In this document: one piece after another, positions 1 through 9,920 of the stretch
Position numbering within the stretch: position 1 is the first letter of the stretch
Layout: the number at the start of each line of letters is the position of its first letter
Assembly: GCA_965218095.1 (NCBI GenBank)
Contig: OZ244587.1
Span: 1,472,001 to 1,536,000 of the forward strand
From: Candidatus Poribacteria bacterium
GTDB lineage: Bacteria > Poribacteria > WGA-4E > PCPOR2b
Length of the DNA: 64,000 nt
Direction of reading: 5' to 3'
Notes under the pieces: model-generated
Databases searched by the model: none
What the model saw: the letters and a program-made list of their open reading frames with translations, nothing else
Told to the model about the DNA's origin: nothing
Position numbers and translations under genes: made by a program

Positions 1-74
1 CGACGCCTCCCTTAAAATGTAAAGTTTATTTTTTAGGACTTACGCAGTTGAACGCTCAAAGCCAACCCCCCTGT

Positions 75-197
75 CCCCCTTATCAGGGGGGTAGTTCGGC
101 GGTTCATCCCCGGGCAGTATAACGCCTGGTGCCCGATGAATCGGGCAACTACAATTTGGGGTGAGCGCATGTTTCTTAATCCCGATCTTGCATCGGG
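75..197. repeat. Cluster of short REP-like palindromes, including an inverted GTAG-type doublet
   Basis: GTAGTTCGGCGGTTCATCCCCG (91-112) faces the reverse complement of GTAGTTGCCCGATTCATCGGGC (131-152). Also CCCCCTTATCAGGGGG (75-90) and CCCGATCTTGCATCGGG (181-197). Confidence 0.65.
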
Positions 198-488
198 GTA
201 AATTTTTGATTTACCTAGCGAACCCCCTGAAGTGCGTAAGTCCTGTTCTTGAAACTTGCTTACCGATGCGTGGACAAAGCGTCGAGGCAAGAATGCCTCT
301 CTCACAGCCGACCTAACCCCCACTAGACGGTTATGATAATCACGATGTCACAAATTGTCACATATTTTATCGGATGCGGTCGTTGAGGCAAGGATGCCTT
401 TTCCACAACCTACGGGGAGAAGCTAACCCCGGTCAAACTTTCCGCTTGCTGCAACTGTGCCTCTAGCAGACAGTTTTGATAATTACGA

Positions 489-536
489 TGTCACAATATA
501 TCACAAATCGTCACATCAATGTGATATATTGTGACA
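489..536. repeat. Perfect 17-bp inverted repeat with 10-bp-phased TCACA motifs
   Basis: TGTCACAATATATCACA (489-505) and TGTGATATATTGTGACA (520-536), 14-nt spacer. A related segment occurs at about 335-365. Confidence 0.8.
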
Positions 537-590
537 CCGGCAGGCTTTGAGTTAAAAGTGCGGCTTTTTATCCTTGCTGTCTCCATCAAG

Positions 591-785
591 TTATTTCCTT
601 TCTAAGGTGGCAACTTGGGTTAATCTACCATTTCTCAAATCCGTCATTTTGGATCGAGTCATTCCCCGATTTTCAATCAGGCGATTGATCTTTGATGCTA
701 GTTTGACTTTAGCCAATTCTTCATCAGGATTGGGGAAACCTAAGTCCTTAAAGATGTTTCCTGAACTGATTGTATAGTCTGCCAT
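591..785 (-). pseudogene. Degenerate XRE/HigA-like helix-turn-helix protein
   Basis: SSGNIFKDLG..PDEEL..KLA..I..RGMT matches the HTH_37-type N-terminus, but the first HTH helix and the C-terminus appear to be missing (64 aa). Confidence 0.6.
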
Positions 786-845
786 TTTTTGCTTTCGGTT
801 TCCCCCTCTTGATAGAACTGGATGATTTCAATTCTAGGTTTCTTC

Positions 846-1631
846 TCATAGCTCCCCCTCACCATTTGCCTGTGAGTTAAGGAAGTTGTCAATTTCTTTC
901 AATAACGTCGTCTTCTCCGTTTCATAATTGGCGATGATGTCCTCCGGGATTGATCTGTTATGTGCCACGCAATTTCTCAACTGCTCAATCCACTCGACTT
1001 GATTCTCTAAACTTGCCAAAAAATCAATGTATTGCTTTCCTATGATCGGATTGCAATCGTTGAGCTTTTTATACTGCCTGAACACTAAATGAAAGAACTC
1101 ATTTTCATAAGACTCATTCATCAGTTTTGCAGTACGTCGTGGAGGGGGGGTAACAGGATCAATATTGGTCTCGTTTAAGAAGTCGTAAAAATCTTTGCCA
1201 TAGGTATCAATGAAAATCAGGGAAAGGGCTTCTCGTAGTTTCATTTCGATTTCAAAGATTTCTTTTCCGTAATCACGAAGCGTGCGCTGCAATTGTGGAT
1301 CATTCAGTTTCAGCAGATGCTTGATCCTTTCGTCAGTGCAATCCGCAGTGCAATCTGCTACGAATTCGCTGAAGTTGTTGATTAAATCTTCCATTTGTTC
1401 CTCTGCGCTATCAAATGTTATCGAAAATCCGCAGGTCCAGCGACCATCTTCTCGTGTCGTGGTGTGGCGGATAGTAATATGCTGCTCTAGTTCCTCGACT
1501 CCCGGCGGTTCATCGTCGATAGCTGCCAACGCACTCTTTAACATTTCCGTTAAAAGTTCTATCAACCCCATCTCACCAGATAGACCGATCTCGCTAGAAC
1601 ATACAACAAGGTAATCTACCGTCACGGACAT
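846..1631 (-). CDS. HEPN (Swt1-like) domain protein coupled to the RM locus
   Basis: C-terminal half has FEIEMKLRE and the RxxxxH motif RNCVAH. The ATG lies 1 nt after the S-frame stop. Confidence 0.7.
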   Translation of the reverse strand: MSVTVDYLVVCSSEIGLSGEMGLIELLTEMLKSALAAIDDEPPGVEELEQHITIRHTTTREDGRWTCGFSITFDSAEEQMEDLINNFSEFVADCTADCTDERIKHLLKLNDPQLQRTLRDYGKEIFEIEMKLREALSLIFIDTYGKDFYDFLNETNIDPVTPPPRRTAKLMNESYENEFFHLVFRQYKKLNDCNPIIGKQYIDFLASLENQVEWIEQLRNCVAHNRSIPEDIIANYETEKTTLLKEIDNFLNSQANGEGEL

Positions 1632-1632
1632 C

Positions 1633-3078
1633 TCAGGATACCTCCCTGCTCAAAAGCTGTGCTTCAAATTGTGCCTTCGCGGCTTCCCATTCCTCCGTGG
1701 CTTCTTGTTTGAGTTTTTCCGCTTTCGTGAGGCGTTGTTTGACGTCTGCAACGATTTCGTTTTGAACCTCAATCGGTGGAAGAATAACCTTTAGGGATTT
1801 CAAGGCTTTATAGTCCAGAGCGGGGCGAGTTCCACCCGTCACTTCCCTAATTGCCAGAGATCTACCAAGTTCAGAGTTAAGAAAAGCCGCAACATAATGC
1901 GGGTTGATATTGACGTTTGCAATTTGTTCTTTAAGATGGAATCGAACAGAGTGCTGATTTATATTCCCTTCAAAGTTATCCGGTACAACCGAGACGCTCC
2001 CGATTCGCCCTGTTATCGTAAACACCAGATCATCTTTTTTAAGTTGCGAACGACAAAGCATTCCCTCATGAACTTCTCTCTTGATGAACTTTGCATCACT
2101 CAAATCAATTCCCTGACTTGTAACATTTTGGACTCTCAAAAACGGGATACCAGATGAATCTGTGTAATAATCTTCGTCCACCTTTGGAGTGACTCCAGTA
2201 GAGATGTCTCTTATCAACATGCCCAAATTGAAAACATCAGACCGTGCACTTTCAACGATTTGGTCAATGGTTCTAAATTTGGATTGGTAGTAATACGAAT
2301 CAACCCGCCTCCCCACCGTTTCATTGGCGCGAACCGCAAAGCACTTCTTTTCCTCAACAACCGGCATCTCAATCCCCAATTCCGCCAGCACATAACCATC
2401 AATTGAATTCAAAAGCGTGTCCGCCTCTTTTAGTTTCTGCTCTCGTGCTTTTCGTGCCTCTTGCATCTGTGAAACAAGAGCGTGCTCAAATTCTACCTTG
2501 GGGATTTGAACCGAAGCAACATCTTCAGTTATAATTTTACCCTGGACCTGTCCGCTTTGGTTTCTCTCAAGTTGAAGTGCTCCTAGAGTACTGGACAGGA
2601 AGAACTGGATATAGGTTGGATCAAGATCAGCAACCCGTCGAATCGCAATCAGATTCGCTGATATGTTCCAAACTGGATAGGTTGAAGGAATAACAGCAGA
2701 GATTCCAAGTGTACCCCGCTGGGATATTACGAGATCACCTGGTTTGACCTGCGTTGAATTTAGTGAATTCGCTTTTTTCTCCGAAAGAAAAATGAGTGCT
2801 TTTTCATCGATCGTGCCTTCCATTGTGATGTTTGAAATACGGACAAGAGGAATGCCAGTCTCCTGATATTCGGCGGAAGTGATAGCTGACCCAAATGGAC
2901 CGCATATAACTTCCGAATAAAAATCAAGGCGTTGGATGTCTGGAAAGCGTCTCCGAATCTTGTTTATCAAGATCTGATATTTTGGAAGATGGTAATGGTA
3001 ATCTGCCCGTTTTGTTACTTCGCCCCGCCGAACCGCAAAGTGCTGTAGCTCTCCCTCAGCGGCGGGGCTTAGACGAAA
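1633..3078 (-). CDS. hsdS: RM specificity (S) subunit with two TRDs; frame probably entered by -1 frameshift (first in-frame start codon is TTG at 2970)
   Basis: Two repeats of GIP.(V/L)R..N, GDLV/DDLV...G..G and IP/LPP plus helical spacer. Frame is open from 3096 to 1633 with no ATG/GTG/TTG until 2970. Confidence 0.85.
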   Translation of the reverse strand, partial: FRLSPAAEGELQHFAVRRGEVTKRADYHYHLPKYQILINKIRRRFPDIQRLDFYSEVICGPFGSAITSAEYQETGIPLVRISNITMEGTIDEKALIFLSEKKANSLNSTQVKPGDLVISQRGTLGISAVIPSTYPVWNISANLIAIRRVADLDPTYIQFFLSSTLGALQLERNQSGQVQGKIITEDVASVQIPKVEFEHALVSQMQEARKAREQKLKEADTLLNSIDGYVLAELGIEMPVVEEKKCFAVRANETVGRRVDSYYYQSKFRTIDQIVESARSDVFNLGMLIRDISTGVTPKVDEDYYTDSSGIPFLRVQNVTSQGIDLSDAKFIKREVHEGMLCRSQLKKDDLVFTITGRIGSVSVVPDNFEGNINQHSVRFHLKEQIANVNINPHYVAAFLNSELGRSLAIREVTGGTRPALDYKALKSLKVILPPIEVQNEIVADVKQRLTKAEKLKQEATEEWEAAKAQFEAQLLSREVS

Positions 3079-3081
3079 AAA
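3022..3081 (-). promoter_or_regulatory. Putative -1 programmed ribosomal frameshift cassette
   Basis: mRNA U_UUU_UUC (3081-3075) in the RM frame, 6-nt spacer GUCUAA, perfect 9-bp stem GCCCCGCCG (3068-3060) / CGGCGGGGC (3030-3022). Confidence 0.75.
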
Positions 3082-4874
3082 GGTTCGGGATTCTTTTCAA
3101 ATACCCGGTACTGCCTCACCACCTCCGGGAGTTGATTCTCAGTTTCACGTCCGGTGGCGTTATAGCCAATCAACTCCGGTGCTGCCATGAAAATGGCTTC
3201 GTCGTCGCTCAGCTTCTCACCGTCGTCGCGTCTGCGGAGAAAAACGATGCTCGCTTTTACGCCCGCCCCGAAATGGGCAAAGGTCATTTGTGGTAGGCTT
3301 ACGATGGCGTTAATCTGGAAACGTTCCAACAGAAAGTCGCGTACCTCTTGCAGCGAGGAGTTAGTTAAAATTCCGTCGGGTATGATGACGGCTGCACGTC
3401 CGGTGCCGGGTTTGAGAAAATCCCAGATACGTTCAATAAAGAGGATCTCGGTCCGCTGGTTTTTGCGAGGTCTCTTGTGCCCGGCTTTATTCATCTGATT
3501 CCCCAACTCATAGTCCTCAAGATAGGGGTGTTCAGACAGTGACACCTTTGCCCCGAAAGGTGGGTTTGTCAAAATCAGGTCAAAGTACCCTTCTTTGAAC
3601 TCGTTGTTACCTGTTCTCTCACGGATGCGGTCGAACTCTTGCAGTGCGTCTGCGCTGATGACGTTGGTGTGACCGTCGTCGTGGAGAATCATGTTCATTT
3701 TAGCAACGCGTGCAATCTCTTCGTTGACCTCAATCCCGAAAAGCTGATCTTTAGCGAAATCATGCCAATGCTTAGAACGTTTTCCTTGATCGTCGTGATA
3801 ATCCTTTGCTCCTTTGCGAACATCGTTGAGTGCATGGAGTAGGAATCCACCCGAACCGCAAGCTGGATCCAATACGCGTTCATAGTGTTGGGGCTGCATC
3901 ATCTGGACCGCAAAATCAATGATTTCCCGCGGGGTGAAATACTGACCGAAATGGCCCTTGAAAAAGCCGTCCATAAACGTTTCAAATGCCAACCCTTTTG
4001 TATCAAGATCTGTGTCGGAGAGGTTAATCCCCTCAATGTGGGAGACAATGGTGCGGAGTGTTGGGGCGTCGATCTTGATGGTATCGGTGAAAACATCAGG
4101 TTCCCTCCGCTGCTGCACCTCATAGATTGACCGGATGCGCTCGTAGAGTTTGCTACTCGGCTCATGTGTCTTAATCTGAAATTCGTAAGGTTCGCCCTTT
4201 TTCTTATTTACTTCGTCATTGATTTTGACGAAGATAATTTTACACAGCTCGCCGAAAGCCTCGGGAGGCGAGAGTCTACCGCCTCCCCAAAGGGTCTGAT
4301 GGCATTTCTTGATCGTAGCAATGAGCACCTCTTTGGTGACATCGGAAATATCGTTTTGGGTTCCTTTCCAAAAACGGAATTTCTCCGGTTTACCATACTG
4401 TTGGGGAAGGTCTGCGACGATATTCGCCTCGCGTTCAAGAATCCCATATTTCGGAGAGAAATCGAGGAATCGCCGTGTCTGACCGGCGACCACCCCAACA
4501 AAGTTTGCACGAAACTTGGCCCATGCGCCGTTGCCACAAGCCTGCTCAACCGCTTGATCGAATTCCGAATCGGTGATGTCATCGCGCTTGCACTCAATCA
4601 CGGCATAGGGACGCTTCCGTTCGTCATCGCGAAAAACGACCAGATCAGCGATGTCCCTCGGGGTCCGGTCAGGCACCGTTACTTCAACCCGGATACGGTT
4701 CGGTTCATAGCCGTAGCGGTAGATTAGTTCCGCCCAATATTCCGCTCTAACTTTCTCTTCGGGGTCAGCGTATTTTTCTGTGCGGTTAATCGCAACATAG
4801 GTAATCTTTTCAGCGTTCCCCTTGCCCGAAAGATGTGCATCTCCATTTTTAAGTGCTTTCTCCAAGTAGGTCAT
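3069..4874 (-). CDS. Fused restriction endonuclease/N6-adenine methyltransferase (HSDR_N-type nuclease + N6_Mtase; Type IIB/IIG-like RM subunit)
   Basis: N-terminal PEEKVR..ADLVV..IECK PD-(D/E)xK motif; GQYFTPR, motif I DPACGSGG, motif IV NPPF. SD AGGAG upstream. Confidence 0.9.
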   Translation of the reverse strand: MTYLEKALKNGDAHLSGKGNAEKITYVAINRTEKYADPEEKVRAEYWAELIYRYGYEPNRIRVEVTVPDRTPRDIADLVVFRDDERKRPYAVIECKRDDITDSEFDQAVEQACGNGAWAKFRANFVGVVAGQTRRFLDFSPKYGILEREANIVADLPQQYGKPEKFRFWKGTQNDISDVTKEVLIATIKKCHQTLWGGGRLSPPEAFGELCKIIFVKINDEVNKKKGEPYEFQIKTHEPSSKLYERIRSIYEVQQRREPDVFTDTIKIDAPTLRTIVSHIEGINLSDTDLDTKGLAFETFMDGFFKGHFGQYFTPREIIDFAVQMMQPQHYERVLDPACGSGGFLLHALNDVRKGAKDYHDDQGKRSKHWHDFAKDQLFGIEVNEEIARVAKMNMILHDDGHTNVISADALQEFDRIRERTGNNEFKEGYFDLILTNPPFGAKVSLSEHPYLEDYELGNQMNKAGHKRPRKNQRTEILFIERIWDFLKPGTGRAAVIIPDGILTNSSLQEVRDFLLERFQINAIVSLPQMTFAHFGAGVKASIVFLRRRDDGEKLSDDEAIFMAAPELIGYNATGRETENQLPEVVRQYRVFEKNPEPFFV

Positions 4875-4982
4875 GTTTTTCTCCTGTAGGTGTGGGATAG
4901 GTACATTGCAGTCATGCAGTTAAAAAATATCACGAACTTCAATTTGTGTCAAGGGCAAACAGAGAAGTACGCATCTTTAGGT

Positions 4983-5011
4983 TTGCAAGATTCAGTCGGG
5001 CTTGCTATAAT
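4983..5011 (+). promoter_or_regulatory. Sigma70-type promoter of pduO
   Basis: TTGCAA-17 nt-TATAAT with extended -10 TG. Confidence 0.7.
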
Positions 5012-5039
5012 GAAATACCAAGGAGGTGGAAGCTGCAGA

Positions 5040-5606
5040 ATGAAAATCTATACCAAAACCGGCGATGGCGGCGAAACAGGACTTTATGGCGGAACACGGA
5101 TTCCCAAGGATTCTATGCGTGTTGAGGCTTACGGAACGATTGATGAGCTCAACGCCTGCATTGGATTGGCGCAATCACAGATCCAAGATGCGGAGCTCTG
5201 CGCAATTCTCCACCGTATTCAGAATGAACTCTTTGATCTCGGGGCAGACCTCGCGACACTGGATGCGCATCCGAAAGCGGATAATCTGAGACTCACATCC
5301 GATTCGACCGCTTCACTCGAAAGAGAGATTGATCAGTTTCAAGCAGAACTCCCGGCGATGACCCATTTCATTTTGCCCAGTGGTTCGCCGGGGGCGGCGG
5401 CACTGCACCTCACCCGAGCTGTCTGTCGTCGTGGTGAGCGGTGTGTTGTCCGTCTTGCCAAAACAGAGACGGTTAATCCAGAGATCTTGCGCTACCTGAA
5501 TCGGCTTTCCGATCTGCTGTTTGTCCTTGCCCGCCTGGTTAACCGTCGTTCAGACGCCTATGAACCGTTTTGGAGTTCACCTTTGGAGCGCGCGAAATCC
5601 AAATAG
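5040..5606 (+). CDS. pduO: ATP:cob(I)alamin adenosyltransferase, PduO type
   Basis: MKIYTKTGDGGET, EAYGTIDELN, RAVCRRGER and YLNRLSDLLF motifs. Start moved to ATG 5040 after AGGAGG. Confidence 0.93.
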   Translation: MKIYTKTGDGGETGLYGGTRIPKDSMRVEAYGTIDELNACIGLAQSQIQDAELCAILHRIQNELFDLGADLATLDAHPKADNLRLTSDSTASLEREIDQFQAELPAMTHFILPSGSPGAAALHLTRAVCRRGERCVVRLAKTETVNPEILRYLNRLSDLLFVLARLVNRRSDAYEPFWSSPLERAKSK

Positions 5607-5665
5607 GTAAATCGGCGAATAAGCAAAATTAGCAAAGCTTCAATTCGCAAGGAAGGAGTGATTTT

Positions 5666-6423
5666 ATGCGGCTGAAAGATAAGGCAGCCATTATCACCGG
5701 TGCAGGTAGAGGCATCGGTAAAACAACCGCAATTCGCTTTGCGGAGGAAGGGGCGAAGGTTGTCGTTGATGACGTGAACCCAGAGATTGGAAACGCAACT
5801 GTCGAGCAAATCATTCCACAGGTGGAGAGGCGATTTTTGTTCGTGCAGATGTCTCGTCTCAGGAGGAAGTGGCGGCGCTTGTTTCGGGGACAATCGAAAC
5901 CTTTGGGCAGGTGAATGTTCTAGTCAACAACGCGCTCTGCTCGACGGAGGATGTTGTCAACAACAATTGGGACGCTAACTTGAACGTTGCGCTTCGCGGC
6001 ACAGATTTATGCTCGCAGGCCGTGATTCTAGAGATGCAAAAGATTGGTGGCGGAAGCATCATCAATATCGCGTCGGTCAATGGGTTAATCGGCTTGCAAG
6101 GCATCCACGCCTACGCCGCCGCCAAAGGTGGGGTCATTTCGCTGACCCGATCACTGGCGGTGTGGCATGGCAGAGACAATATCCGTGTCAACTGTATCTG
6201 CCCCGGCACCATTCAAACGGAAGTGTGGGAGCCAATCATCGCAAAGAATCCGCAGATCTTCGACGAAATCACGCCCTGGTATCCACTTGGTCGGATCGGG
6301 AAGCCGATTGACATTGCGAATGCCGCGCTGTTCCTTGCGTCTGACGAATCTTCGTTTGCAACCGGGGCAACATTCGTGATTGACGGTGGACTCACGGCGG
6401 GATTACATCGGTTTCCGTTGTAG
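5666..6423 (+). pseudogene. Short-chain dehydrogenase/reductase, frameshifted near 5810-5820
   Basis: TGAGRGIG is in one frame; [22 protein letters not shown] and IDGG are in another. Confidence 0.8.
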
Positions 6424-6505
6424 CCCAGAGAAAGGAGGGACTTGCTACGGCATCAAACACATCTCATTAATCCCAAACAAACTGGACTAACAGGAAGGAG
6501 CAAGT

Positions 6506-7642
6506 ATGAAAAACTCAAAAATAGATTGCATTGAATGGGCACAGCTTACCGGTCAACGTCCGCGGGAAGCTGGGTGCAACTCACGTCTTAAGGTACACGG
6601 ACTGCATGTCAGGCCCCCCATTGCCCGTGTCACCACCGACGACGGTGCGATGGGCTTTGGTTGGTCACGCATCACCGAGGCTCAAGCCAAAGCGCTTGTC
6701 GGCTTGAACTTGAGCGAGGCTTTCGATTCGGCGGATGGCGTCAGTGAACAATTCCGCGTGCTTGAATACCCGATTTGGGACCTCGCAGGGCAACTCGCCG
6801 GAAAGCCGGTATATGCGCTGCTCGGTGGTCAGGTAGGCGATGATGGTGTTTTTCGCGCCCGCTGTTACGACACCTCGCTGTACATTGATGACCTGCATCT
6901 CGAAGATGACGGTGAGGCAGCCGCACTCATTGCCTCCGAAGCGCTGGAAGGTGCGGCGCGGGGTCATACGGCATTCAAAATTAAGGTAGGACGCGGGGCG
7001 ATGCACGTGCCACTCGAAAAAGGAACGCATCGAGATGTTCTCGTGATTCGTGCCGTCCGGGAAGCTGTTGGCCCCGATGCAACGATTCTAATCGATGCCA
7101 ATAACGGCTACAACTTGAACCTTACAAAGCGAGTGTTGAGCGAAACCGCCGATGTGGGCGTCTACTGGATGGAGGAGGCATTCCACGAGGATGCGAGCTT
7201 CTACGCCAATCTGAAAGAATGGCTCAATTCGGAGGGGTTAAAGACCCGGATCGCCGATGGGGAAGGCGGCGCCTCACTCCGGCTGCTCGATTGGGCAGAG
7301 GAGGGGTTGATCGATATTGTGCAATATGACATCTTCCACCCCGGCTTCTCCCGCTGGCTTGAGCTTGGGCCGCAGCTCGACGAGTGGAACGTCGGTTCAG
7401 CGCCACACCATTATGGCGGGCATTACGGCAATTATGCGGCATGCCATCTTGCTGCGGCAATCCAAGGCTTTGAGTTTGTCGAATGGGACGAAGCCGAAAC
7501 GCCCGGTTTGGACGCCTCTGGGTATTCGATTTCCGATGGTTATGTCAAGGTCTCCAAGCTGCCCGGCTTTGGTCTCAGCCTTGATGAGGCGATCTACGCT
7601 CGCGCCGTCAAAGAGAATGGATTTGTTGTGCGCGGAACGTGA
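6506..7642 (+). CDS. Mandelate racemase/muconate lactonizing enzyme family (enolase superfamily)
   Basis: KIKVG, IDANNG, WMEE, ADGE and PGFG motifs. Confidence 0.85.
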   Translation: MKNSKIDCIEWAQLTGQRPREAGCNSRLKVHGLHVRPPIARVTTDDGAMGFGWSRITEAQAKALVGLNLSEAFDSADGVSEQFRVLEYPIWDLAGQLAGKPVYALLGGQVGDDGVFRARCYDTSLYIDDLHLEDDGEAAALIASEALEGAARGHTAFKIKVGRGAMHVPLEKGTHRDVLVIRAVREAVGPDATILIDANNGYNLNLTKRVLSETADVGVYWMEEAFHEDASFYANLKEWLNSEGLKTRIADGEGGASLRLLDWAEEGLIDIVQYDIFHPGFSRWLELGPQLDEWNVGSAPHHYGGHYGNYAACHLAAAIQGFEFVEWDEAETPGLDASGYSISDGYVKVSKLPGFGLSLDEAIYARAVKENGFVVRGT

Positions 7643-7920
7643 TGCGTGAGATGAAAAATGTGCACTATTTTGAAAGGCATGTTATAATTTGACTTTGTAT
7701 GAGATAATCGGCAGATCCACTGCTGGCTCCGGTGCTGGCGCTTCGCACCGAGCATCCTCGACCTTCGGGCTGCAGGTCCCCCAACCAAAGACCGCAGTAG
7801 TCAATGGTTAGCCCCTTCTATTTGAATTAGTTTCTTGACTTAAGCCTTGTTCCTGCTCATACCAGTGATTCAACCCACACTTGCTTCCTTTCGTATCTTT
7901 GCCCTTCCTTAAAAATGAAG

Positions 7921-8001
7921 TTGACAAACTGCAAAAAATAGATTACCATATACTAATTATAAATTTAGGAGTGACTAAATATAAATTTTGGATAGCCAAG
8001 A
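7921..8001 (+). promoter_or_regulatory. Promoter with tandem DtxR/MntR-like operators
   Basis: TTGACA-17-TACCAT; palindrome ATTTAG-N6-CTAAAT (7963-7980) and a second copy TTTTGG-ATAG-CCAAGA 22 bp downstream. Confidence 0.7.
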
Positions 8002-8670
8002 ATGATAACCTATGCGATGGAAGATTATCTAAAGACGATCTATCTTCTGCAAAAAGATCAGGAGAAAGTTTCTACCACTGCGATTGCCCAACAAATGAAC
8101 GTCTCAGCCGCATCTGTCACGGGCATGATCAGAAAGCTGGGATCGATGGGACTGCTCAATTACACATCTTATCAAGGCGTTGAATTGACAAAAGGTGGGA
8201 AAAAAATCGCTCAAGAGATTATTCGCCATCACCGGTTACTGGAACTTTATCTCGTTGAAATCATGGGATTTACCTGGGACAAAGTGCACGATGAGGCAGA
8301 TAAACTGGAACATGTTATTTCCGAGGAGTTTGAGGAAAAGATGAGCGAGGCGTTGGGGCATCCGACAACCGACCCACATGGACACGCCATCCCAGCAAAG
8401 GATGGAGCGCTCCAAGAAGTCGCTCATGAAACGCTAGTGGAAGTCGATGCAGGGAGTTCTGCCACCGTTCAGCATGTCAATGATAGTAATCCCGATATGC
8501 TGCGTTATCTCGATCAGTTGGGCATCCTGCCGGGCACCGTTGTTCAAGTTGTGGCGAAAGAACCTTTTAACGGTCCGTTGCGTTTGAGGATTGACCAAAC
8601 CGAACACTTTGTTGGCCGTGAAGTCGCAGGAAACGTGTTCGTAGAAGTGTCTCGAAAGAAGGCACATTGA
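8002..8670 (+). CDS. DtxR/MntR-family metal-dependent repressor with C-terminal FeoA domain
   Basis: MEDYLKTIY, RHHRLLELYL, EADKLEHVIS and DPHGHAIP motifs. Confidence 0.93.
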   Translation: MITYAMEDYLKTIYLLQKDQEKVSTTAIAQQMNVSAASVTGMIRKLGSMGLLNYTSYQGVELTKGGKKIAQEIIRHHRLLELYLVEIMGFTWDKVHDEADKLEHVISEEFEEKMSEALGHPTTDPHGHAIPAKDGALQEVAHETLVEVDAGSSATVQHVNDSNPDMLRYLDQLGILPGTVVQVVAKEPFNGPLRLRIDQTEHFVGREVAGNVFVEVSRKKAH

Positions 8671-8852
8671 CGGAAAACACAGAACTTATAGCGAGTAAAA
8701 CGCGCGCTTCTCCCGTCAGCCTCAACGAAGGGATCTCTTGCACCTTAATGAGGGGATTCTTCACTGCGCTCTATTAGACTTCCAAGAAACTACCTGCAAT
8801 GAGTTCACAGAAAAGGTAAATTCTAAATTTTACTTTTATGGGGGAGTTGAAT

Positions 8853-9920
8853 ATGGGAATAGTAAAGAGAACTAAGGAGTTTTTATCAAGACGGGATTTT
8901 CTACGGGTAAGCGCGGCAGGGGCGGCCGGGCTTACCGCCACTGGAGCGATTCTGACGTCAAGTCGCGCTCAAGATGCCGCAAAACCTTCGTATGATTCGT
9001 CAGATTCAGCGGATATGAGTATGGGAGGTCCAGGGCATGGTCAAACTGGCATGTTCGGCTCTATCGGGAAAACAACATCTGACGGATTTAACCCGAACAA
9101 ATATCTCACTCACTTCGACTATGGCAAAGTGAGCACACTTCCAGATGGCAGAACCCTGAGAGAATATAGTATAACCGCGATAGAAAAGGAGATAGAAATT
9201 GCACCCGGGGTGATGTTTCCGGCGTGGACATATAATGGCACCGTGCCTGGCCCTACGTTGCGTTGTACAGAGGGCGATCGTGTTCGCGTCTATTTTAAGA
9301 ACAACGCAACTCATCCGCACACCATCCATTTTCACGGCTTCCACCCTGCGAATATGGACGGCGTTTTTGAGCAGATTCCACCTGGAGCCAGCTACACCTA
9401 TGAGTTTGACGCGGAGCCTTTTGGGTTGCACCTTTATCATTGTCACACAATACCTTTGAAGCGTCACCTCCATAAAGGACTTTATGGGGCATTTATTATC
9501 GACCCCAAGCAGCGCCGCCCGGAGGCCAAAGAGTTGGTCATGGTGATGAACGGCTTTGATACGAATTTCGATGCCGAGAATGAATTTTATGCGGTAAATA
9601 CGGTCGGGTTCTATTATCAAGATCACCCTATTCCGCTTAAAGTCGGGGAGTTAGTCCGGATATATCTCGTCAACGTGTTAGAATTTGACCTGATCAATTC
9701 GCTTCACATTCATGCCGGTTTCTTCAAGCTTTTCCGCACAGGCACGAACCTTGATTTTTATGAGTTTACGGACACCGTCATGCTCTGTCAGGGTGAGCGG
9801 TGCGTCGTGGAGTTTACCTATAATTATCCTGGTATGTTCATGTTTCACGCACATCAAGCCGAGTTTGCCGAATTGGGCTGGATGGGCTTCTTCGACGTAA
9901 AGGAGGAAACCCATGTCTGA
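8853..9920 (+). CDS. Tat-exported two-domain multicopper oxidase
   Basis: SRRDFLR signal; HTIHFHG, YHCH..H..GL, LHIH and FHAH motifs. T1 Cys is present only in domain 1. Confidence 0.9.
   Translation: MGIVKRTKEFLSRRDFLRVSAAGAAGLTATGAILTSSRAQDAAKPSYDSSDSADMSMGGPGHGQTGMFGSIGKTTSDGFNPNKYLTHFDYGKVSTLPDGRTLREYSITAIEKEIEIAPGVMFPAWTYNGTVPGPTLRCTEGDRVRVYFKNNATHPHTIHFHGFHPANMDGVFEQIPPGASYTYEFDAEPFGLHLYHCHTIPLKRHLHKGLYGAFIIDPKQRRPEAKELVMVMNGFDTNFDAENEFYAVNTVGFYYQDHPIPLKVGELVRIYLVNVLEFDLINSLHIHAGFFKLFRTGTNLDFYEFTDTVMLCQGERCVVEFTYNYPGMFMFHAHQAEFAELGWMGFFDVKEETHV

Follow-up and report, generated by a model that had tools for sequence, protein, structure and literature searches.

A Type IIB-like restriction-modification locus with a conserved candidate -1 frameshift signal between its nuclease-methyltransferase and specificity reading frames

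The stretch of DNA analysed here, referred to as the window, comprises 64,000 nucleotides (nt) of a Candidatus Poribacteria genome (assembly GCA_965218095.1, contig OZ244587.1, positions 1,472,001 to 1,536,000). The window carries a restriction-modification (R-M) locus on its minus strand, in which a nuclease-methyltransferase gene (RM) is followed by a specificity (S) reading frame in the -1 frame (Table 1). The 3' end of RM reads CCT TTT TTC GTC TAA and contains a heptamer of the X_XXY_YYZ type in phase with the RM codons. A hairpin follows the RM stop, and its 5' arm GCCCCGCCG at 3068-3060 pairs perfectly with its 3' arm CGGCGGGGC at 3030-3022. Together these features form a candidate signal for programmed -1 ribosomal frameshifting between RM and S. 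The evidence on frameshifting is computational throughout.

Read through the shift, the S frame extends from 3075 to 1636, which is 480 codons beyond the second phenylalanine (Phe) codon. The predicted shift product, RM-S, has 1080 amino acids (aa) and a mass of 122.9 kDa, and its predicted trans-frame junction peptide is ...NPEPFF followed by RLSPAAEGELQHFAVR. An FAV..R.D..Y block near the beginning of the S frame recurs inside S before the second target recognition domain (TRD). The translation of the S frame (P0001) contains the start-less stretch ELQHFAVRRGEVTKRADYHY as well as the internal repeat KKCFAVRANETVGRRVDSYYY. An initial annotation of the window had described the junction with its in-phase heptamer, the all-GC stem with its 29-nt loop and 6-nt spacing, the -1 frame that is open from 3096 without an ATG, GTG or TTG until 2970, and the resemblance of the start-less stretch to the repeat before the second TRD. 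Each of these is recovered at the same positions, and the product sizes computed here agree with those it gave.

Table 1. Positions of the R-M genes, the junction elements and the adjoining features in the window.
Feature	Position	Strand	Details
Promoter-like site TTGACA-17-TATTTT, TG ahead of the second hexamer	4924..4952	minus	about 50 nt upstream of the RM start; 10/12 consensus matches
RM gene (nuclease-methyltransferase)	4874..3069	minus	601 aa, 69.1 kDa; stop TAA 3071-3069; product of ordinary decoding
PD-(D/E)xK-type nuclease domain HSDR_N_2, N-terminal	4551..4763	minus	residues 38-108; Pfam E 2.5e-12
N6-adenine DNA methyltransferase domain N6_Mtase	3159..4004	minus	residues 291-572; Pfam E 7.9e-40
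S frame, -1 relative to RM, two TRDs	3096..1633	minus	open from 3096, 487 codons to 1636; stop 1635-1633
Slippery heptamer U_UUU_UUC, X_XXY_YYZ phase	3081-3075	minus	codons CCU UUU UUC = P598 F599 F600
Spacer GTCTAA, 6 nt	3074-3069	minus	last sense codon GUC + zero-frame stop UAA
Hairpin, putative stimulator	3022..3068	minus	9-bp all-GC stem, 29-nt loop with further inner pairs
S N-terminal block HFAVRRGEV..RADYHY	3042-2992	minus	upstream of any start codon; family consensus CFAV[KR]RGE..R.D
First ATG/GTG/TTG of the S frame (TTG)	2970-2968	minus	37 codons past the heptamer, 3' of the conserved block; no visible Shine-Dalgarno sequence
Second TRD, Methylase_S	2166..1735	minus	P0001 residues 311-454; Pfam E 3.8e-14
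261-aa open reading frame	1631..846	minus	starts 2 nt past the S stop; weak Abi_2 match, E 0.0013, below the Pfam cut-off
HTH_37 (XRE-like) protein, 64 aa	785..591	minus	just downstream of the 261-aa open reading frame

The locus has the features of a Type IIB system. A PD-(D/E)xK nuclease and an N6-adenine methyltransferase are on one polypeptide, and S is Type I-like with two TRDs, as seen in the Methylase_S match, in two separate stretches matched by PADLOC Specificity_I models and in the internal repeat. The RM residues D77, E94 and K96 occupy invariant columns among 24 homologues, as do the methyltransferase motifs DPACGSGGF and NPPFG. The nearest solved structure to RM is that of RM.BsaXI (8w0p), a Type IIB enzyme (E 4.6e-39 over residues 154-551). 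Among the neighbours within positions 1-9000, the neighbourhood inspected, there is no helicase or HsdR gene for an ATP-dependent motor subunit. The locus is thus a Type IIB-like R-M system made up of a nuclease-methyltransferase and a two-TRD S and, by analogy with BsaXI, would be expected to cut on both sides of a bipartite site.

Other classes of system were rejected. A classical Type I assignment fails because no HsdR lies nearby and the nuclease is instead fused to the methyltransferase; the classical HsdM model TIGR00497 (hsdM) scores 67.6 bits against a cut-off of 242.75. The MADS proteins MAD2 and MAD5 have related domains, and the matches to them (292 and 105 bits) lie below the NCBIfam equivalog cut-offs of 720 and 400, respectively. 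The host genome holds a single copy of the RM-S locus, and the system is present in 4 of 28 genomes from the same family. Eight records in a plasmid collection match, all at less than 60% identity, and none belongs to this RM family. The consensus scan that gives the promoter-like site upstream of RM is weak (6 sites in the region compared with 4.5 +/- 2.4 in shuffles), and it finds no promoter-like site on the minus strand between RM and S.

The RM protein search gives more than 8000 matches near 600 aa among those listed. At the protein level, 112 of the 113 best matches of 590-650 aa end in two Phe residues plus one further residue. The DNA of 160 homologous loci was compared, 80 from species-representative genomes and 80 from metagenomes. 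These are the best-scoring loci and not a random sample, and they were classified blind to the motif, using only the tblastn frame. The RM stop lies one codon after an in-phase TTTTTTY in 70 of the 80 genome loci and in 77 of the 80 metagenome loci, and the combined count for T_TTT_TTY at this place is 147/160. Where RM ends near 600 aa (148 loci), the heptamer is present in 147, and the exception is a truncated gene (L003). The 13 loci that do not fit consist of two in-frame full fusions with seven T (L001, L002), eight in-frame fusions to a half-S with a single TRD (L015, L026, L034, L049, L073, L079, L124, L143), one gene with a different C-terminus (L020), the truncated L003 and one gene that runs off its contig (L150). 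The carriers belong to more than 12 phyla: Poribacteria, Planctomycetota, Verrucomicrobiota, Bacillota, Chloroflexota, Cyanobacteriota, Thermotogota, Nitrospirota, Spirochaetota, Synergistota, Bacteroidota, Acidobacteriota, Armatimonadota and Lentisphaerota. Cultured strains among them include Nostoc sp. C117 (L057), Ruminococcaceae bacterium HV4-5-B5C (L048) and Bacterium 1XD8-76 (L066).

Codons at the end of RM were analysed in 72 loci chosen by motif pattern, a choice that excludes almost no locus according to the motif-free counts. The codon before the two Phe codons has T in its third position in all 72, irrespective of the amino acid. It is CCT in 64 loci, while the others have ATT, CGT, TCT, CAT, CTT, GAT or AGT; elsewhere in the same RM genes only 24% of proline codons are CCT. 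The first of the two Phe codons is TTT in 72/72, compared with 54% of Phe codons elsewhere. A conserved control Phe, ten codons before the stop, is divided almost evenly (35 TTC and 36 TTT). Third-position entropy is 0 at the codons four and three before the stop and ranges from 0.8 to 2.0 at the preceding 41 codons. The RM protein does not need the PFF residues, because in-frame half-S fusions occur without them. These codon patterns indicate that conservation of the slip site acts on nucleotides rather than on protein.

The spacer is also fixed, with exactly 6 nt (one sense codon and the stop) in 73 of 73 sequences analysed. Upstream of the heptamer, at a distance of 13-16 nt, 49 of the 72 loci have a Shine-Dalgarno (SD)-like AGGA, GGAG or GAGG, mostly formed by the codons AAG GAY. 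The lysine codon in this stretch is AAG in 57/72, though AAA is slightly commoner elsewhere. It is possible that the tetramer is an upstream stimulator of the dnaX kind. The window has no SD-like tetramer and reads AAGAAT there.

The stem begins at the base directly after the RM stop in 73/73 sequences. In the window, the 50 nt 3' of the stop fold at -27.1 kcal/mol, compared with -8.5 +/- 3.3 kcal/mol for 124 other 50-nt segments of the same locus, none of which is as stable. The same pattern is seen in homologues, in which the 50 nt after the stop have a mean minimum free energy of -23.6 kcal/mol and the background (about 124 segments per locus) has a mean of -8.3 kcal/mol. The segment after the stop is the most stable of its locus in 57 of 73 loci and is among the best 5% in all 73. 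This comparison with the local background replaces a shuffle test of the 101 nt around the site.

Pairing was examined in an alignment (A2) of 71 of the 74 motif hits, leaving out L043 and L068, which have loops of 62 and 50 nt, and L038, which is too short. Shuffles have 76.6% of cells paired in the outer helix and a covariation score of 0.086; the alignment has 84.9% and 0.190, and 0 of 500 shuffles reach either value. Slid controls, in which the partner is moved by 1-3 columns, give at most 58% pairing. The closing pair (pair 0, columns 14-63) is CG in 40 distinct rows and GC in 25, with no one-sided changes. On the S frame this change is a Ser/Thr difference in the linker that is tied to a synonymous position of a Gly codon. 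When near-duplicate gut loci are reduced to 117 distinct stems, pairs 1-5 are kept paired in 115 through U-G wobble or double changes, for example in L015, L019, L043, L065, L074 and L103. The U-G pairs are consistent with a structure formed by the sense-strand RNA. An additional inner helix is present in many loci, and its 3' strand TGCTTTGC encodes Cys-Phe-Ala.

The long loops of L043 (5930-6010) and L068 (3950-4020), both from Chloroflexota, result from an inserted, nearly perfect inner hairpin, a GACTTCCGAAGTC-type repeat. The insertion lengthens the linker of RM-S, and the outer stem is kept. An intrinsic terminator at the junction was also considered and rejected, as the stem is not followed by a T-run and no terminator is called there.

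The S frame is the -1 frame in homologues and has approximately 455-500 codons where it is intact. In all 72 translations from the heptamer, the -1 peptide begins FFR[LIV][ST]P and continues through a variable linker to CFAV[KR]RGE..R.D. The N-terminal block is also present in natural in-frame fusions. The first start codon of S lies within or after this conserved block in 51 of the 72 loci and between the stop and the block in 5. A start near the RM stop is absent in 56/72 loci, including the window, and there the codon that overlaps the stop is CUA, AUA or GUA. A -1-frame ATG or GTG found 21 codons upstream of the heptamer in 11 loci was rejected as a start, as it derives from conserved RM Y-D codons and in most loci a stop closes the frame before the heptamer is reached.

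In some loci (L007, L012, L013, L076, L130 and others), the heptamer and hairpin are kept and S is broken by a further frameshift or stop. Where short -1 reading frames were checked (L007, L012, L013, L076), S carries on beyond a stop or in a different frame; short -1 frames are also found in L113, L132, L157 and L164. Broken S genes are ordinary decay of R-M systems, and not every locus is functional.

Natural in-frame fusions occur at the same junction. In the closest genome relatives, L001 (85% identical) and L002 (84%), the run has seven T, and NPDFFRVSPD leads straight into a two-TRD S. The resulting fusion has 1069 aa and the same form as the predicted shift product. In P0123, which is more distantly related, the junction reads DFFWISPD and is likewise in frame. 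Given these natural fusions, RM-S is a viable protein. The T7 of L001 and L002 could be a homopolymer error in long-read assemblies. Both sequences come from sister Poribacteria chromosomes (positions 5801-5870 of each locus) and retain the hairpin 7 nt past T_TTT_TTT, with a -1 stop 5-6 codons on. A -1 slip in these loci would yield a short RM, the mirror image of the arrangement in the window.

Single-TRD S sequences are fused in frame to RM in 8/8 loci. Seven of these half-S fusions have no heptamer, stop or stem; the eighth (L015) keeps the heptamer, has CAG in place of the stop and has lost the stem. In the RM tree, the eight half-S fusions sit singly beside frameshift-type sisters, which corresponds to eight changes, at least seven of them forced by well-supported branches. 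The tree, made with FastTree only, leaves out the last 12 codons of RM and has 103 sequences: the window, all 80 loci from genomes and 22 of the 80 from metagenomes. Its metagenome rows were chosen by hand for diversity and include both half-S loci, many of the 58 omitted rows are near-identical gut contigs, and L003 and L020 are unlabelled. Among the loci checked, no intact one combines the signal with a single-TRD S. Where a half-S is fused to each RM, a dimer has two RM per two half-S and recoding is unnecessary. With a two-TRD S, two RM are required for each S, and loci of this kind are the ones that carry the frameshift signal. Single-TRD systems would need no frameshift device and may have dropped it at least seven times.

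Both arrangements are found in one Poribacteria genome (L015:2295-6512), where a frameshift-type RM end with a two-TRD S (heptamer at 2295) is followed by an RM-half-S fusion at 4001-6512. At 3072-3073 of the window, contigs from three public sequencing runs (X1, X2, X3) agree with RM as far as its last sense codon, beyond which they differ. One diverging loose end, reverse-complemented by hand, reads QLGITPPQEE and is similar to PFFVQLGITPPQKE, the junction at which L015 and P0106 join RM in frame to a half-S. The same samples seem to hold near-identical RM genes in both forms, frameshift-type and fused in frame to a half-S.

In contigs from four public runs mapped on 2500-3700 of the window, there are no indels at 3076-3081. 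A 336-nt contig of run X1, which may be the source sample, bridges this run of T and spans 2921-3256 with 0 differences and 0 gaps. Contigs of relatives that are about 90% identical also cross 3076-3081 gap-free. This evidence consists of contigs and not reads, in which rare variants are dropped, and a rare T7 sub-population may exist alongside T6. The RNA run X10 has contigs of relatives only, and these cover 3183-3700, with the slip site outside. The homologue comparison identifies T6 as the norm of the family.

The initial annotation had interpreted the junction as a programmed -1 frameshift site, with the alternatives of an A7 run misassembled as A6 and of homologues that are all in frame or have a normal S start. 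The homologue comparison supports its interpretation; its further idea, that the second FAV..RxD..Y repeat might complete the short RM in trans, is conjectural. The heptamer, the 6-nt spacer, the -1 overlap and a stem with compensatory changes above the shuffled and slid controls all recur across homologues. Neither alternative describes the family, given the gap-free contigs, the T6 state in 147/160 loci and the 56/72 loci without a start near the stop.

Four properties of a -1 frameshift cassette are found at this locus. These are an in-phase X_XXY_YYZ heptamer, reduced synonymous variation at the slip site, a structure 6 nt downstream (within the 5-9 nt expected of such signals) that is conserved as a structure, and a long conserved -1 reading frame that overlaps the site and lacks an initiation signal of its own. 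It is very probable, on these comparative grounds, that programmed -1 ribosomal frameshifting yields RM (69 kDa) and RM-S (123 kDa), which together would match the (RM)2S composition of Type IIB enzymes. We infer both the shifting at the heptamer and its frequency from sequence. Ribosomes would translate RM until UUU-UUC (codons 599-600) occupy the P and A sites, and would pause there with the GC-rich hairpin, 6 nt downstream, at the mRNA entrance. A fraction of them would slip one base back on U_UUU_UUC, both tRNA-Phe re-pairing in the -1 frame (UUU-UUU), and would read on via RLSPAAEGELQHFAVRRGEV... into the two-TRD S to make the 1080-aa fusion. The unslipped ribosomes would read GUC and terminate at UAA to give the 601-aa RM. 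One RM-S and one RM would then supply two nuclease-methyltransferase units and one two-TRD S, or (RM)2S.

The heptamer is of a favourable class. In E. coli, heptamers of the form H_HH.U_UU.Y rank with the most efficient, and insertion sequence (IS) elements make use of U_UU.U_UU.C, according to a heptamer survey (PMC4066793). The U_UU.U_UU.Y of the RM-S loci belongs to this class.

The stoichiometric rationale has indirect support by analogy from the single-TRD in-frame fusions, from BsaXI and from EcoKI. BsaXI is an (RM)2S heterotrimer by electron cryomicroscopy (PMC11997821). An engineered fusion of the EcoKI M and S subunits is active in vivo and cleaves in vitro only with added free M, and the complex suggested by its authors consists of one fusion and one M (PMC3510504). 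One extension of the proposal is possible but doubtful: the cassette may set the stoichiometry from one cistron and run in reverse in T7 alleles, such that a one-base change swaps the default product and neither product is lost. With a shift rate near one half, RM and RM-S would be made 1:1, and each S would be born tethered to one catalytic unit and would recruit one free unit. In L001 and L002, the fusion would come from ordinary decoding, and the short RM from a -1 slip on U_UUU_UUU that runs into a stop after five codons.

Several observations weigh against programmed frameshifting as the explanation. The fold of the 101 nt around the site is unremarkable in GC-rich sequence when compared with shuffles (z = -1.1), so the comparative data carry the weight for the hairpin. 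Covariation of the closing pair mostly follows two large clades. Kin among the loci are not independent, so the shuffle controls overstate independence, and the locus sample as a whole is top-scoring with many close kin, including near-duplicate gut loci. The 3' arm of the stem also codes for a conserved Arg-Gly of the S N-terminus, and its conservation is partly at the level of protein. The one-to-one assembly of RM with RM-S is drawn by analogy from other enzymes. In 16/72 loci, an ATG, GTG or TTG lies across or directly next to the RM stop (A/GTGA), and a T homopolymer of 6 to 8 in all 72 motif-picked loci could in principle support slippage by RNA polymerase at U6 or U7.

The 16 loci with a start at the stop bear on termination-reinitiation, in which ribosomes that have finished RM begin again close to or at its stop and produce S as a free subunit, and the U-run and hairpin serve otherwise, for instance in tuning the coupling. 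There is precedent for coupling in EcoKI, in which hsdM and hsdS overlap by 1 nt and are translationally coupled (PMC3510504). As a general route it is improbable, as the other 56 of the 72 loci, including the window, have no ATG, GTG or TTG near the stop. It leaves unexplained the invariant in-phase heptamer and its synonymous-site conservation, the fixed 6-nt distance to a covarying hairpin, and the in-frame fusions at the exact junction. The 16 loci nevertheless retain the heptamer and stem. Coupled initiation of a free S is possible in about one fifth of loci, where it may coexist with shifting.

Transcriptional slippage, in which RNA polymerase adds one U within the U6 run and some mRNAs encode the fusion in frame, is very unlikely. 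In its favour, the natural T7 alleles encode the fusion at the level of DNA, and UUUUUUU is called slippage-prone in the survey cited above (PMC4066793). Against it, the T run is held in heptamer phase, and the conserved hairpin lies 3' of the run at the distance of a ribosomal frameshift signal. Slippage-stimulating hairpins have been placed 5' of the run, and known bacterial transcriptional slippage sites are usually runs of about nine or more.

Least probable of all is the absence of recoding, with the split of RM and S due to a frameshift mutation, to misassembly or to T6/T7 phase variation in the DNA that turns S off and on. In its favour are the T7 alleles of the close relatives L001 and L002, the degenerate S genes of L007, L012, L013, L076 and L130, and a gene 1 kb away (5666-6423) that is split by a frameshift, from which it follows that this assembly can hold indels. 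Against it, T6 and the stop recur in 147/160 loci, which come from various phyla and were assembled independently, and in independent contigs that cover this part of the window. Synonymous-site conservation, a covarying hairpin and a -1 frame open over 480 codons would not persist in a pseudogene, and six T are short for high-rate slipped-strand switching.

Among bacterial cellular genes, only a few (dnaX, copA, csoS2 and some more) are known to use a conserved programmed -1 frameshift. The RM-S signal resembles that of E. coli dnaX (tau/gamma), which also has a heptamer, a spacer of about 6 nt and a downstream hairpin. As proposed for RM-S, the two dnaX products come from one gene and enter the same complex in a set ratio. 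The upstream SD sequence of dnaX has a counterpart in the 49 RM loci with an SD-like AGGA or GGAG and none in the window. In dnaX, the heptamer is A_AAA_AAG and the shift leads to the shorter product, whereas RM-S has U_UUU_UUY and the shift would lead to a longer fusion; RM-S also differs in having the zero-frame stop inside the spacer. The OrfAB of IS3/IS911 and the tail-chaperone G/GT of phages are similar in another way, as a -1 shift near the end of the first frame fuses a start-less second frame and both products are functional. Those are transposase and virion-assembly genes, whereas RM-S joins an enzyme to a DNA-recognition subunit in a defence system. The heptamer survey names dnaX as a true frameshift case in its main text (PMC4066793).

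Among R-M systems, BsaXI and BcgI resemble the RM-S locus in having a nuclease-methyltransferase and a two-TRD S without a motor subunit. Their S is a separate polypeptide, whereas S here is start-less and would remain joined to one RM unit of the pair, and the sequence relationship between BsaXI RM and the RM of the window is distant. Half of the Type IIB enzymes modelled in the BsaXI work are described there as 'RM + a separate S subunit' (PMC11997821). The EcoKI 'Type IMS' M-S fusion was made by removing the frame offset between M and S, which gave an active fusion (Roberts et al. 2012, PMC3510504). Its proposed complex of one fusion and one M is the same assembly as that proposed for RM-S and RM. 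That fusion is man-made and of Type I, with a separate HsdR motor, and the account given of it leaves the in vivo source of free M unclear (PMC3510504). In the RM-S locus, unlike EcoKI M-S, free RM is the default translation product.

Single-chain RMS proteins of Type IIB-like organisation (P0122-P0241; 1054-1225 aa) have the same order of nuclease, methyltransferase, TRD1 and TRD2. Their hosts include Methanocaldococcus fervens, Brachyspira, Microcystis and Planktothrix. These proteins are in frame, at most 54% identical to the RM of the window and much less numerous, with 265 matches as against the more than 8000 listed near 600 aa. In 12 of the 13 junctions inspected, PFF and the stop are missing; the remaining one, P0123, keeps FF in frame.

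The BcgI-like systems of H. pylori, likened here by description only, have a stop after RM and no potential S start (2013, PMC3936762). To its authors, this arrangement was what probably made the systems inactive, and they supplied S with a start codon and a ribosome-binding site; frameshifting was not considered there (PMC3936762).

In the literature searched, no description was found of frameshifting between RM or M and S genes. Restriction-modification is unmentioned in the first 300,000 of the 449,034 characters of a review of recoding (Atkins 2016, PMC5009743). The main text of the GeneTack survey contains nothing relevant (Antonov 2013, PMC3711429), and that of the heptamer survey contains no restriction or methylase term (Sharma 2014, PMC4066793); their supplementary tables list 146 and 69 candidate clusters, respectively, and might contain the family. 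In an unrelated C-REase fusion, frameshifting was tested and not seen (Liang and Blumenthal 2013, PMC3850674). The parts of the arrangement are known, namely a Type IIB-like RM with its S and a classical -1 cassette, and their combination appears to be undescribed.

If frameshifting takes place as proposed, the RM-S signal would be one of the most widespread cellular frameshift signals in bacteria: 147 loci from more than 12 phyla have it, and thousands of related proteins share the same end. Within the literature searched, it would be the first such frameshift in an R-M system. It would be a simple answer to the matching of one two-TRD S with two catalytic subunits, and would explain start-less S genes that annotation truncates or calls pseudogenes, or that lead a system to be deemed inactive, as for the BcgI-like systems of H. 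pylori (PMC3936762). When such enzymes are expressed, the native junction is best kept. The cassettes of approximately 60 nt, with U_UUU_UUY and a hairpin, are naturally varied across phyla and are material for studies of frameshift efficiency.

The neighbouring genes are of several kinds. The 261-aa open reading frame directly after S has no NCBIfam or PADLOC match. Homologues of it (37-53% identity) are found directly after S in six distinct loci (L001, L002, L015, L017, L112 and L124; L090 is the same place as L015 and is not counted separately), and it may be an occasional accessory gene of the RM family. The HTH_37 protein is possibly an antitoxin or regulator. Within positions 1-9000, the neighbours encode a helix-turn-helix protein, a cobalamin adenosyltransferase, a short-chain dehydrogenase/reductase (SDR), an enolase-superfamily protein and an iron-dependent repressor. 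The SDR gene (5666-6423, plus strand) is the split gene mentioned above and lies in two frames, of which 5666-5914 encodes the N-terminal part (82 aa) and 5869-6423 the C-terminal part (184 aa). The switch of frame is at about 5815-5835, where there is no slippery heptamer, and the split SDR gene is either a pseudogene or the result of a 1-base assembly error.

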